A stretch of 64,000 bases of DNA from an uncultured Spirochaetota bacterium (GTDB taxonomy: Bacteria; Spirochaetota; UBA4802; UBA5550). The position numbers were made by a program, and so were the translations under genes. Location of the stretch: contig CAWHAA010000010.1 of assembly GCA_963827275.1 (NCBI GenBank), positions 160,001 to 224,000 on the forward strand. The letters run 5' to 3'. The notes beneath the pieces were generated by a model. That model was given only the letters and a program-made list of their open reading frames with translations, made no database searches and was not told the origin of the DNA. Every line of letters begins with the position of its first letter. Position 1 is the stretch's first letter. This document shows positions 7,345 to 51,374 of the stretch, in pieces.

Positions 7345-7588
7345 GTTGTACTAATCACGGGTAGGCATTCTTTTCGAGTTTTCAAAAATTTTTATTAATT
7401 TTCACGCCGCGCGCGACCCTTCGACAGGCTCAGGACAAGAATTTTAAGCCTCTGCCCAGTGCTTTTTCTGCTGGAGGGGCCTTAATTTGAGAGGGAGTAA
7501 TTGCCAATGCTTCGACAGGCTCAGCACAAGTAAAATGCATTCAGTCGCATGAGCCGCAACCTACGAGGGTGAATTTTCCTATGTATTG
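7345..7588 (-). repeat. Dispersed repeat family, long copy 1
   Basis: 7442-7588 is near-identical to 9862-10008. 7345-7481 aligns in reverse complement to 36290-36426. Contains two CTTCGACAGGCTCAG motifs. Confidence 0.85.
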
Positions 7589-8155
7589 ATCGTCGATTCA
7601 AATGCGGCGAAGAATAGTCTCTTCGGCTATCGTTTCACCGCGGGATACGAGCAATACGTATTCAAGGAGCCTGAAACGTGAACCAGCAGCGACCCGACGC
7701 ACCGGTTCAGCATGTCGCATGCGTTTGGTTTCGGTTTTGCCAGGACGGAGATGGTGCGTTTCTGGATAGGCCCCCGCGTGGGGCTCCATTACCTGTACAA
7801 ATCCGAATCGCGCAATGCATACAGCATATTACCCACGTTTACCGAAATACTGATTATCCCCTATAAGGTTAAAATCGATATCGATGCTATCGGCCTGGAT
7901 TTGCTGCTGGCCATCGGCCTGAACCTGAACATCGAAAAATACTTGACGCTCTTTTTTGACGTCGGGTTCGGATACATGGGCAATTATAATCTCAATACGC
8001 CGCAGACAGGGCATGCCTTCGGACTTGACTGCAAGGCAGGATTTATGATTCTAATGACGCCTATTCTCCTGAAAATGTACCGGGAAAAGAGGGGGTTTAA
8101 GACAGGCCCGGAATGGCGGGGGTCAGTCCGAATATCCCCCGCCGCCATTCCATAA
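7589..8155 (+). pseudogene. 5'-truncated outer-membrane beta-barrel-like gene remnant with in-frame TGA
   Basis: The 7712 ORF frame extends upstream as IVDSNAAKNSLFGYRFTAGYEQYVFKEPET*TSSDPTHRFS (TGA at 7679-7681) up to the repeat edge. Alternating beta-strand pattern; no signal peptide remains. Confidence 0.6.
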
Positions 8156-47863: not shown

Positions 47864-48469
47864 CTAAAAAAATATTTCTCCCTTGCCTTCCCTGATGACG
47901 ACCGGCTCACCCTCGGTGAGATCAACGACCGTTGACGGCCGTGACACCTTCGGGCCGGCGTCTATGACCAGGTCCACCTCGTTCCGGTATATCTTCTCGA
48001 GGTCTTTCGGCTCCACGATGTACTCCCCGCTTACGGAGTTCACGCTTGCCGACATGATGGGCCTGCCCAGCGCGCGCACCAGATCGAGCGCGATGTTGTT
48101 GTCGGGGATCCTTACCCCGATCGTTTTCTGGTTCGTGATGGCTATCCGCGGCACCAGCCTGGTCGCCTTGAAAACCAGCGTGTACGGGCCCGGGAATGCC
48201 TTCTTCATTATTTTAAACGCCCTGTCTGATATGTTTCTGGCATATTCGCTTATACCGGAAATATCGCTGAACATGAAACTCAGCGGCTTGTTGCGGCCGA
48301 TTCTTTTTATCCAGTATATCTTTTCAATTGCATGCTTGTTGTTGATATCGCACCCGTAGGCATACACCGTGTCAGTCGGGAAAATGATCACGCCGCCTTC
48401 CTTCAGCACTTCCACGGCCTTCTCGATCAGCCGCTTCTGCGGATTCTGTTCATTAATTACAAAAATCAT
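47864..48469 (-). CDS. Sua5/YrdC/YciO-family threonylcarbamoyl-AMP synthase-like protein
   Basis: FPTDTVY, PGPYT, IGVRIPDN and PSTVVDL motifs. Confidence 0.92.
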   Translation of the reverse strand: MIFVINEQNPQKRLIEKAVEVLKEGGVIIFPTDTVYAYGCDINNKHAIEKIYWIKRIGRNKPLSFMFSDISGISEYARNISDRAFKIMKKAFPGPYTLVFKATRLVPRIAITNQKTIGVRIPDNNIALDLVRALGRPIMSASVNSVSGEYIVEPKDLEKIYRNEVDLVIDAGPKVSRPSTVVDLTEGEPVVIREGKGEIFF

Positions 48470-48570
48470 CCTTATTTCTCATTGCGCAATATATACTACA
48501 TTATCGTACAGGAGTAAGTATAAATTTAATTAAACAAAAACATCTTTTAAGTCAGGGGAATGATGCGGAC

Positions 48571-48613
48571 AAACAAAAAAGGCTTTTGCAGGAGTGCGCG
48601 CTGCAAAAGCCTT
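48571..48613 (-). terminator. Strong intrinsic terminator with no upstream minus-strand CDS
   Basis: 13-bp stem AAGGCTTTTGCAG/CTGCAAAAGCCTT followed on the minus strand by TTTTGTTT. Confidence 0.7.
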
Positions 48614-48791
48614 CAACCTGGTAAATTATGATAGGAGTGTATCATTAATAATCATTAGTATGATCGGGCGTAATGAGGAATTACTTGATTACTTTTTTGG
48701 ATGAATTTTTAAAAATTTATTATATTACATTGAATTTGTTGATTCTCGCCCCCTCCATGCGACGGGGGATTCAAGAATGATCGCACATGTG

Positions 48792-48820
48792 TTGAAAAAA
48801 AATGCTTGCTAAAATAAAAT
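48792..48820 (+). promoter_or_regulatory. Sigma-70-like promoter for the DUF1573 gene
   Basis: TTGAAA-N17-TAAAAT. Confidence 0.55.
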
Positions 48821-48862
48821 CGAGCGACTATTGGAACATATGCAACGAGGAGGCTTTTCCCG

Positions 48863-49228
48863 ATGAAAAAATTTCTCTTTCTCCTGCTCATCCCGGCCGC
48901 GCTCTACTGCAACGGGAAGCCGAAAATCGTATTCGATACGCCCACGCACGATTTCGGCAAGCAGGAACAGAATGTTGAATTGAAACATATTTTTATCTTC
49001 AAAAATGCCGGCGACGGGACACTCCTGATAGATAAAATAGTTCCCGGTTGAGGCTGCACCGGCGTCCTTCTCTCAAAGAAGGACATCCCTGCCGGAGGCA
49101 GCGGACAGATTGAAGTTTCATTAAAAACCGGCTCACATACCGGAAGGATCAGCAAATCGATCATGGTATATTCAAATGATCCGGCACAGAAAACCGTCAG
49201 GCTGGTCATATCGGCCGATGTAAAATAG
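48863..49228 (+). CDS. DUF1573 (Ig-like) exported protein with in-frame UGA; candidate selenoprotein
   Basis: HDFG...FIFKNAGDGTLLIDKIVPG-[TGA 49049-49051]-GCT...IPAGGSGQIEV...KSIMVYSNDP...VK*. The frame continues to TAG at 49228; the family motif is CGCT. Confidence 0.8.
49053..49102 (+). promoter_or_regulatory. SECIS-like stem-loop immediately 3' of the UGA
   Basis: Nested pairs GCTGC/GCAGC, CCGGC/GCCGG and GTCCTTCT/AGAAGGAC; CTCAA loop starts after a 20-nt gap from the UGA. Confidence 0.5.
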
Positions 49229-49232
49229 GATT

Positions 49233-51374
49233 GTGACCGCGGTGGCGACCCTGAAAACCCTGCCCGGATCTCCGCTCCCGCCGGGAGCGCACTTCACCAG
49301 GAACGGCGTCCAGTTCTCACTATTCAGCAGGCACTGCACGTCGGTAACGCTGCTCCTGTTTGAAACCGATGAGCCTGACGCGAACTACACCGAGGTGCCG
49401 CTTGACCCGGACATCAACCGGACGGGCGACATCTGGCATATACTGGTGGAGGGGATCGAGGAAGGCCAGCTTTACGGCTACCTCATCGACGGGCCCTATG
49501 ATCCGCCCGCGGGCCAGCGCTACAACAAGAACAAGCTCATCCTCGACCCGTGCGCCCGGGCCATCACCGGCACGCGCCGGTGGGACCTCACCATGGCGCA
49601 GGGATATGATGAGCACTCGCCCGACCTGGACCTTTCCTTTTCACGGACCAGCAGCATTCCCTTCATGCCCCGCTGCGTCGCGATCGACCGGCCGATGGTG
49701 CTGCACGGCACGCCGCTCAGCGTACCGGAGCGGGACTGCATCATTTACGAGCTGCACGTCAGGGGGTTCACCTGCCACCGGTCGTCAGGAGTCGGGCGCG
49801 GCGGCACCTTTCGCGGCCTTGTTGAAAAAATTCCCTACCTGAAAGATCTCGGCGTCAACGCCGTCGAGCTTATGCCGGTGCAGGAGTTCGACGAGGACGA
49901 GAACACGAACATAAACCCGCTCACCGGGGAGAAGCTCAAGAATTACTGGGGCTACAGCACCATCGCCTTCTTCGCGCCGAAGGGCTCCTACTCCGCGTCG
50001 GGGAGCATGGGGGAGCAGGTACGCGAATTCAGGGAGATGGTCACCGCCTTTCATGACGCGGGGATCGAGGTGATACTGGACGTCGTGTTCAACCACACGG
50101 CCGAGGGCGACGAGACCGGCCCCACCCTCTCCTTCCGCGGGATCGACAACTCGATCTATTACATCCTGAAAGAAGACCGCCGCTATTACACGAACTTCTC
50201 CGGATGCGGCAACACCTTCAACTGCAACCACCCCCTGGTGCGCGAATTCATACTCGAGGCGCTCCGCTACTGGGTCATCGACATGAACGTGGACGGGTTC
50301 CGCTTTGACCTTGCTTCCATCCTGGGGCGCGACCAGAACGGCAGCATCATGAGCAACCCGCCGCTCCTCGAGACGATCAGCGAGGACCCGATTCTCAGGA
50401 ACTGCAAGATCATCGCCGAGGCGTGGGACGCCGCCGGGGCCTACCAGGTGGGAGAATTCCCCGGCCGCTGGGCCGAATGGAACGGCAAGTACCGCGACGA
50501 CGTGCGGCGGTTCTGGTGCGGGGAGGAGAACAGCGTCGGCTATTTTGCCACCCGCGTCACCGGCAGCTCCGACCTGTACGGCGACTCGCCCAACGGCCCG
50601 CTCCAGAGCATCAACTTCGTCACCTGCCACGACGGGTTCACCCTGAACGACCTGGTGAGCTACCAGCGCAAGCGGAACATCGAAAACGGCGAGAATGACA
50701 AAGACGGGGAGGAGAACAACGCGACCTGCTGCATCGGCGCCGAGGGGCCTGACCGCTCGCCGGCGGTCACGAAGCAGCGGCTGAAGCAGATAAAGAACTT
50801 CATCGCAACGCTCTTCCTCTCCCAGGGGATCCCCATGCTCCTGGCGGGCGATGAGTTCAGGAGGACCCAGAAGGGCAATAACAACGCCTACTGCCAGGAC
50901 AACGAGATCTCCTGGGTCGACTGGAGGCTCATGGAGGAAAACCGGGACCTCCTGCGCTTCACCCGCGAGATGATACGGTTCAGGCAGCGCCACCCCGTCC
51001 TGAGAAAAGGGAGCTTTTTCGCCGGCGCCGCGCATGGCGGCATAAGCGCCCCGGACATTGCCTGGCACGGGCACCATGTGAACGAGCCGGACTGGACCCC
51101 GTCAAGCCGCTCAATAGCAATGCTCATCAACGGCGAATACGCCGGGCTGACCGGCGACGCCTCCGATAATGATCTGTACGTGATTTTCAACGCGGCAGGA
51201 TCGGACCGCGTGTTCGATATTCCCGAAGCCCCGTCGGGCAAAGGATGGAGGGTGGCGGTCGATACCGCCAAGGACTCGCCCGAAGAAATTTACTCCGATG
51301 GGAAAGGACCGCTCATAAAGAAAAACCGCTACCCGGTGGGCAGGCTGTCCACCGTGGTGCTGGTCAGTGATTAG
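49233..51374 (+). CDS. glgX: Glycogen debranching enzyme / isoamylase (GH13)
   Basis: IYELHVRGFT, NYWGY, LDVVFNHTAEG, DGFRFDLAS, IAEAWD and NFVTCHDGFTL motifs. Confidence 0.96.
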   Translation: MTAVATLKTLPGSPLPPGAHFTRNGVQFSLFSRHCTSVTLLLFETDEPDANYTEVPLDPDINRTGDIWHILVEGIEEGQLYGYLIDGPYDPPAGQRYNKNKLILDPCARAITGTRRWDLTMAQGYDEHSPDLDLSFSRTSSIPFMPRCVAIDRPMVLHGTPLSVPERDCIIYELHVRGFTCHRSSGVGRGGTFRGLVEKIPYLKDLGVNAVELMPVQEFDEDENTNINPLTGEKLKNYWGYSTIAFFAPKGSYSASGSMGEQVREFREMVTAFHDAGIEVILDVVFNHTAEGDETGPTLSFRGIDNSIYYILKEDRRYYTNFSGCGNTFNCNHPLVREFILEALRYWVIDMNVDGFRFDLASILGRDQNGSIMSNPPLLETISEDPILRNCKIIAEAWDAAGAYQVGEFPGRWAEWNGKYRDDVRRFWCGEENSVGYFATRVTGSSDLYGDSPNGPLQSINFVTCHDGFTLNDLVSYQRKRNIENGENDKDGEENNATCCIGAEGPDRSPAVTKQRLKQIKNFIATLFLSQGIPMLLAGDEFRRTQKGNNNAYCQDNEISWVDWRLMEENRDLLRFTREMIRFRQRHPVLRKGSFFAGAAHGGISAPDIAWHGHHVNEPDWTPSSRSIAMLINGEYAGLTGDASDNDLYVIFNAAGSDRVFDIPEAPSGKGWRVAVDTAKDSPEEIYSDGKGPLIKKNRYPVGRLSTVVLVSD

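Follow-up and report, generated by a model that had tools for sequence, protein, structure and literature searches.

A putative two-hairpin SECIS with a distal loop in predicted DUF1573 U-G-C selenoprotein genes

In a stretch of 64,000 nucleotides from an uncultured Spirochaetota bacterium (hereafter the window), a gene for a DUF1573 domain protein carries an in-frame TGA which, judging from sequence comparison, is predicted with high confidence to encode selenocysteine (Sec). This reading follows from the Sec machinery being present, the conservation of the TGA and an RNA structure that tracks the codon, and Sec insertion via a non-canonical SECIS, one of the options raised in the original prediction from the letters of the window, is thereby supported at the level of sequence. 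The structure comprises two small hairpins in tandem, HP1 and HP2, and our model, which we favour with some reservation, is a putative two-part SECIS in which HP2 would bind SelB and HP1 would be a folded spacer. The change to the protein annotation is a routine fix, and what appears new is the proposed two-hairpin SECIS with its distal loop.

An ATG at 48863 opens an ORF of 62 codons (48863-49051), which ends in the TGA after the residues IVPG, and beyond it the same frame runs through 58 sense codons to a TAG at 49226-49228 (Table 1). It had been noted that the short ORF stops in the middle of a domain and that its continuation ends 4 bp before glgX; sequence and Pfam both confirm this, as the read-through protein matches Pfam DUF1573 (PF07610) over residues 22-120 and positions 1-98 of the 98 in the model with 79.3 bits (cut-off 26.1). 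The promoter-like match upstream is not above chance, with one found against 1.6 expected from shuffles. Upstream of that match lies a GC-rich inverted repeat (48746-48770, plus strand) that has no Rfam match at the gathering score; an Rfam search of 48400-49400 gave five matches, each far under that score.

Table 1. Positions in the window of the predicted selenoprotein gene, its RNA structures and its neighbours.
Feature	Position	Strand	Basis or remark
sua5/yrdC gene, divergent, neighbour only	47864..48469	-	
Sigma-70-like promoter match, 10/12, consensus only	48792..48820	+	
Shine-Dalgarno-like GAGGAGG, 9 nt before ATG	48847..48853	+	sequence
DUF1573 (OS_HP2-like) U-G-C selenoprotein gene, predicted, 121 aa	48863..49228	+	ORF, Pfam, NCBIfam, homologs
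Signal peptide up to Cys16 (probable lipoprotein anchor); Tyr precedes Cys	48863..48910	+	sequence
In-frame TGA, predicted Sec63, first position of family C-G-C motif	49049..49051	+	alignment, strain contigs
18-bp stem, naked-RNA fold	49053..49102	+	lower helices exclude HP2
Cys65 codon of U-G-C motif	49055..49057	+	sequence
HP1, 8-bp hairpin, +13..+33 after UGA, loop CUCAA 49072-49076; proposed folded spacer	49064..49084	+	
HP2, C-G-closed N-GG-N-N loop; proposed SelB-binding site	49086..49105	+	
glgX-like glycogen debranching gene, conserved neighbour	49233..51374	+	starts 4 bp after TAG

The predicted product is probably an exported, lipid-anchored Ig-like protein of 121 aa with a U-G-C motif, the Cys of which is kept in 87 of 90 TGA copies of the gene. 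A Cys at the distance of the signal-peptide end from the Sec/Cys position recurs in 71 of 88 copies with TGA and 9 of 15 with Cys; the residue before it is Ser, Ala or Gly in many TGA copies and Tyr in this protein, which has no textbook lipobox. That this Cys is conserved where the signal region ends suggests a lipid anchor. The structure model is confident (pLDDT 96.7) and gives an eight-stranded ASH/PapD-like sandwich, with the Sec placed in the turn that links strands 4 and 5. The fold resembles that of ASH/PapD-like Ig domains, including HYDIN domains, and its closest structure, 2QSV of Porphyromonas gingivalis, shares the ASH/PapD-like Ig fold (TM-score 0.81), but the matched domain is without the C-G-C motif of the DUF1573 family. 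A PDB sequence search with the single protein returned no matches, and the motif is absent from all solved relatives; therefore, the structure gives no function. By analogy with selenoproteins in general, a selenol/thiol redox centre outside the cytoplasm would be the most likely function of the U-G-C, a guess that could fall either way. Use of the motif as a soft-metal binding site is, by the same kind of analogy, a more tentative proposal, and a structural Se-S bond is rather unlikely.

As a protein, this is a further member of a predicted family and no novelty. The suggestion of a new selenoprotein candidate does not survive, as 'DUF1573 domain-containing protein, UGC' is already tabulated as a selenoprotein in both PMC9312934 and PMC13188914; the family entry has been traced to OS_HP2 of the Olavius symbiont study (PMC1976440) and has thus been listed since 2007. 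In the available parts of these three sources the family is given as a prediction with no function attached, and the legend of the 2007 figure (PMC1976440) has a SECIS drawn for five of the six new families, OS_HP2 not being among them. That OS_HP2 and the DUF1573 UGC family are the same we infer from the NCBIfam match and the order of the review tables. The present protein shares with the tabulated selenoprotein the same domain over its whole length, the same Sec position (the first Cys of C-G-C) and a single Sec, but differs from the OS_HP2 subfamily in being a probable lipoprotein of 121 aa with a single domain, from a spirochaete-like lineage. With the NCBIfam model OS_HP2 (NF041425) it scores 79.3 bits, under the cut-off of 100, and matches above this cut-off occur in 2 of the 122 class genomes, in frames of 270-290 aa. 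Three-domain-size frames of the OS_HP2 type in two genomes (L067, L068) form a group apart from the rest and may have reached the class from a different lineage.

The genome (4.13 Mb, 92% complete) contains selA, selB, the latter with a SelB-wing_3 domain, and selD, all above their cut-offs, as well as a tRNA-Sec at 73.2 bits (cut-off 47), so that a proposed check for the Sec machinery and a UCA tRNA has a positive outcome. The tRNA-Sec, selA and selB lie together on one contig; selD is on another and itself has an in-frame TGA, and SelB, with 609 aa, is not unusual in length. No stop codon is commoner than UGA, which ends 879 of 1863 long ORFs and so rules out global UGA reassignment, in agreement with the original view that it serves as a normal stop elsewhere. 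The base at the TGA, which was to be confirmed in reads, is the same in contigs of near-identical strains from three of four runs, representing three studies; these contigs span the TGA and show no difference there. The fourth, an RNA run (X18), has no cover of the locus and yields no expression evidence.

Among 40 relatives, 30 have a TGA copy, two have a Cys copy only and eight have no match to the query. The selA gene is present in 36 of the 40, including all 30 with a TGA copy, and the four relatives without selA are all among the eight without a protein match. A class-wide search had matches in 96 of 122 genomes; of these the single-domain ones were taken, weak matches inside long multi-domain frames being left out, and the 119 loci that could be placed amount to 106 distinct sequences. 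At the aligned codon 90 of these have TGA and 16 have Cys (TGY), which establishes the claimed position of the UGA at a conserved Cys, namely the first of C-G-C; the TGA stands at this one codon in 90 loci across several families, and the half of the gene downstream of it is conserved in the TGA copies. The nearest named locus, from a Spirochaetes MAG, is 78% identical. In a quick tree (86 columns, hairpin codons masked, one short row left out), seven Sec/Cys switches are needed, of which at least three are forced by strong branches. A scan of a genome contig collection produced two loci from 599 candidate stretches and a protein database search four matches, numbers that are low probably because gene callers cut the gene. 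One of the 16 Cys copies comes from a Poribacteria genome. In locus L066, a Cys-form DUF1573 domain is fused within a long Poribacteria protein, and the region ahead of this domain is one which we take to resemble a C39 peptidase.

These data also bear on how else the codon could be read. Cys stands at the aligned position in 16 of the 106 homologs, and in a genome that is 92% complete a tRNA could be missing, both of which would suit insertion of Cys or Trp at the UGA, whether through a suppressor tRNA or through near-cognate read-through. Yet the sole UCA-anticodon tRNA among the 45 tRNAs called is the tRNA-Sec beside selA-selB, every TGA-bearing relative has selA and UGA is the commonest stop, so that this reading, including the Cys read-through proposed at the outset, is very improbable. 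Still less credible is a true stop, be it in a pseudogene or behind a 62-aa peptide, or a sequencing error: two TGA copies do look decayed, L141 being frameshifted and L143 divergent, but the recurrence of the TGA in 90 loci, the conserved downstream half and the agreement of three independent studies leave next to no room for it. Selenocysteine thus remains the predicted residue.

The RNA that follows the codon can adopt two arrangements. As a naked 60-mer, its minimum-energy fold is a three-segment stem of 18 bp with the loop CUCAA, which begins 1 nt past the UGA and is stable at -29.4 kcal/mol (z -4.2; none of 200 shuffles as stable). If six or more bases after the UGA are blocked, the predicted refold is the tandem of HP1 and HP2, and on removal of six bases the predicted pair probability of HP2 rises from 0 to 0.96; the long stem is lost because its lower helices use the bases right after the UGA. 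These lower helices are 79% paired, with double changes in 2 of 10 pairs (one cell each), and HP2 is 94% paired, so that as a conserved structure the long stem was rejected as weaker than HP1 and HP2. The 18-bp stem first described at this place therefore stands as the fold of naked RNA; its two lower helices exclude the better conserved HP2, and by comparison of sequences it is probably not the SECIS. The GG of the HP2 loop (49094-49095, +43/+44) is that of a conserved Gly codon, 42 nt from the UGA.

Both hairpins go with the TGA in the class set. Hairpin windows at or below -5.5 kcal/mol are found for both in 83 of 90 TGA copies versus none of 16 Cys copies, with a threshold set after seeing the data and among sequences that are kin. 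The motif GC[N GG NN]GC is likewise present in 83/90 versus 0/16, and an N-GG-N-N loop closed by C-G in 89/90 TGA copies and 3/16 Cys copies; the GG as such is also present in 15 of the 16 Cys copies. When the two-window test was applied to TGAs that end long ORFs of the genome, 90 of 1347 passed, 12 of these with a G-loop in place. The HP2 pair of columns 42 and 52 is U-A in 52, C-G in 27 and G-C in 6 of 90 copies (85/90), and in HP1 six of eight pairs have changes on both sides (34 sequences aligned). Synonymous-codon controls are beaten by HP1 in 80 and by HP2 in 60 of the 90 TGA copies, and in the Cys copies by HP1 in 0/16 and by HP2 in 1/16. In the present gene HP2 beats this control only at p=0.037; HP2 is weak by this measure because Pro, Ala and Gly codons fold well anyway. 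Furthermore, A-G-G replaces the P-G-E of the family in 83 of 90 TGA copies versus none of the 16 Cys copies, which mostly have P-G-E, and on this alignment evidence the protein sequence follows the RNA at the HP2 loop. From the alignment of 34 sequences RNAalifold recovers HP2 and not HP1, in place of which it prefers a helix involving the UGA itself; with 41 distant sequences it finds only three HP2 pairs, the register of HP1 being variable.

The HP1 loops, by comparison, are of 3-8 nt with 58 different sequences in the 90 TGA copies, and 13 of 90 have a G in the first two places. Between near-identical strains two adjacent bases of the HP1 loop differ and the stems are unchanged, the loop of these close strains being GACAA, with G first. 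As this loop varies freely and the conserved G-loop is on HP2, CUCAA, which has no G, is unlikely to be where SelB binds. Two TGA copies (L050, L132) are without the second Cys, reading U-G-I, and have the G-loop moved into HP1.

In the published model, the G-loop of a bacterial SECIS lies 16-37 nt from the UGA (PMC13188914, section 5; PMC10778597), and the recognised canonical loops of this genome fit it, with their G at +18 to +28: the GG of selD is at +18, the loops of four fdhA genes at +19/+20 and that of a hesB-like gene at +27. HP2 is similar to these selD, fdhA and hesB loops. It also agrees with the canonical bSECIS as given in the legend of Fig. 2A of PMC13188914, in having a loop of 3-9 nt with G[G/U] (GGA or CGGAG), which HP1 with CUCAA has not, and for an upper stem of 4-16 bp and an energy of at most -7.5 kcal/mol it passes with 8 bp and -10.8 kcal/mol. 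The difference lies in its position, as the loop is found not at 16-37 nt but at 42 nt (39 nt in a distant subgroup), behind a separate conserved hairpin. Our own scan of the present gene found no G-loop at 16-37 nt, and G-loops only at spacings of 39, 42 and 43.

An engineered SECIS at a distance is reported to be active in E. coli (Su, Li and Gladyshev, in 2005). For engineered Sec insertion a SECIS has also been grafted onto 16S rRNA (PMC10945757), and in E. coli the lower SECIS helix unwinds on the ribosome (PMC4513850). The engineered distant SECIS and the SECIS-16S rRNA fusions would, like the arrangement proposed here, act by closeness in space and not in sequence; they are laboratory constructs, whereas the DUF1573 arrangement is natural, lies inside the coding region and consists of two local hairpins. 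No description of a natural bacterial SECIS with two hairpins or a distal loop was found in the literature searched, and literature searches on DUF1573 found none of such an element.

More distant homologs were collected from metagenomes with a pattern that fixed U-G-C-T, a later Gly and an N-D-P motif; it specified no stems and did require the GG itself. At least 121 stretches matched, of which 80 were analysed. Among the matches listed, 60 of 82 were true homologs, 59 of them distinct and 57 above 40 bits, and the median best identity of these 57 TGA homologs to the class set was 45%. Both hairpins were present in 46 of the 59 (among the matches listed). The HP1 sequences are mutually unrelated, yet among the matches listed HP1 did better than the synonymous control in 44 of 57 cases, and HP2 in only 23 of 57.

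Together with 89 class copies (one frameshifted copy dropped), the 57 metagenome homologs among the matches listed make up a set of 146 TGA copies, to which, with this limit on its metagenome part, the following counts refer. Among the HP2 loops, GGUC occurs 12 times. By the spacing of their G[G/U] loop, again among the matches listed, 99 copies have it at 38-44 only and 9 at 16-37 only, 36 have one in each range and 2 have none in either. A permissive scan of the same copies, also among the matches listed, finds some G-loop at 16-37 nt in 97/146 versus 78/146 shuffles, and the distal loop in 135/146 versus 34 in shuffles; many copies could thus comply in a formal sense with the standard model through a different fold. 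The location of the G-loop follows an either-or pattern: among the matches listed, a G-loop is present in HP1 in 8 of 9 copies where HP2 is weak and in 12 of 137 where it is strong; the contrast persists at seven thresholds (-3 to -8) and when each 60% cluster is represented by a single sequence (6/7 versus 6/88). The eight weak-HP2 copies with an HP1 G-loop belong to six clusters and, by eye, to about four lineages; L158 has neither HP2 nor an HP1 G-loop. This pattern is our strongest argument that the G-loop, wherever placed, would be the working part, and hence that HP2 would be the SelB site in the majority form. Also among the matches listed, the gap from the end of HP1 to HP2 is 0-3 nt in 101 of 122 copies, the position of the GG minus the length of HP1 is 16-27 in 122 of 122, and in the distant subgroup the GG is at +40 (spacing 39 nt).

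In the proposed mechanism, a ribosome reaching the UGA would cover the next bases and melt the long stem. HP1, 21 nt in length, would stay folded and shorten the path, and HP2 would form 0-3 nt behind it and offer an ordinary GG loop to SelB. The effective distance of the GG would then be about 17-27 nt, the range of the canonical SECIS loops of the genome. The GG would belong to a Gly codon required by the protein in any case, and its being fixed there would explain why the loop lies so far out.

Two other assignments of the hairpins have to be weighed against this. HP2 could bind SelB while HP1 pauses the ribosome at the UGA or blocks misfolding and SelB tolerates the distance, a pausing role that would parallel the eukaryotic Sec redefinition element. 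Such a role would suit the start of HP1 at +10 to +17, at the mRNA entrance, and its competition with the helix that pairs the UGA in RNAalifold; the engineered SECIS on 16S rRNA also indicates, as far as the available part of PMC10945757 goes, that the position in the mRNA may be loose. However, a folded spacer fits better with the short HP1-HP2 gap in 101 of 122 copies and with a corrected GG distance that is canonical in all 122, among the matches listed, and we regard the pausing reading as a minor alternative. A yet smaller chance is given to HP1 or the long stem as the SECIS, read without a loop G, with HP2 as a by-product of the I-P-A-G-G codons. The HP1 loop is at the canonical distance (+18 to +23), the margin over the synonymous controls is larger for HP1 than for HP2, and no fold of the naked RNA is more stable than the long stem; against this stand the diversity of the HP1 loops with their rare early G, the confinement of A-G-G to TGA copies, the covariation of HP2, the lower helices of the long stem, which are broken more often than HP2, and the gain of a G-loop by HP1 where HP2 is lost. 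The two-part arrangement, with HP2 as the SelB site and HP1 as the spacer, thus remains the preferred model.

If so, the DUF1573 U-G-C genes of several bacterial lineages may have a second class of bacterial SECIS, a reading to which we give even chances: a spacer hairpin free in sequence, then a SelB hairpin at 39-42 nt, switched on by the arrival of the ribosome. As part of this reading, evolution could shift the recognition loop from one hairpin to the other. Reviews and databases hold that some bacterial selenoprotein genes are without a model SECIS and that distinct classes must exist (PMC13188914, section 5; PMC12013277; PMC13326102), and for 12.6% of BSepDB entries no canonical SECIS was found (PMC13326102); the available parts of these three sources describe no such distinct class. 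Some of the selenoprotein genes without a canonical SECIS may be explained by this design, and the DUF1573 family is a concrete candidate with natural controls, namely Cys copies without both hairpins and Sec copies with the G-loop in HP1. If true, the rules for SECIS searches would be widened, and a SECIS could be placed further from the UGA where nearby codons cannot change.

Regarding the genomic context, the glgX-like gene is present in 40 of 55 long homologous loci and is probably co-transcribed with the DUF1573 gene; two Cys copies adjoin glgX, as TGA copies do. The sua5 gene is present in 26 of the 55. Among 125 proteins scanned from the metagenome loci (among the matches listed), none was a consistent redox or metal neighbour: two had a DsbD-type membrane domain, two were ArsR and one was thioredoxin-like, and the others were housekeeping proteins. 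The neighbours thus give no hint of the protein's role.

A genome-wide hunt for selenoproteins by coding score, the gene list of which is incomplete, recognised at least selD, copies of fdhA, a hesB-like gene, a peroxiredoxin-like gene and the DUF1573 gene; the selD and AhpC-TSA labels aside, the fdhA and hesB-like labels are tentative ones given from motifs. The four formate dehydrogenase-like TGA genes (G000:C5:369032, C5:371544, C5:386743 and C9:113417) have canonical loops, GGUCU in three and AGUUU in one. The peroxiredoxin-like gene with U-x-x-C (G000:C4:261016, minus strand) has a C[CGGAG]G loop as in HP2, yet only 10 nt after the UGA, and a weaker G/U loop at +26. The MvhD/FlpD of the genome is without a TGA, a motif scan of the genome for selenoproteins gave matches that are almost all noise, and an apparent selenoprotein with a distal loop at C7:5951 was rejected, the TGA most likely being a stop before a hexapeptide-repeat gene. 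Within the window, 7487-8155 (plus strand) has a good coding score on either side of a TGA at 7679, with a second TGA further upstream; its product resembles a fragment of an outer-membrane barrel, with no Pfam match and no clear SECIS, and it is possibly a broken gene or a chance frame. Several near-identical long repeats in one region, G000:C7:274162-279166 (minus strand), which came up as recurrent matches in the motif scan, probably belong to a gene for a repeat-rich surface protein.
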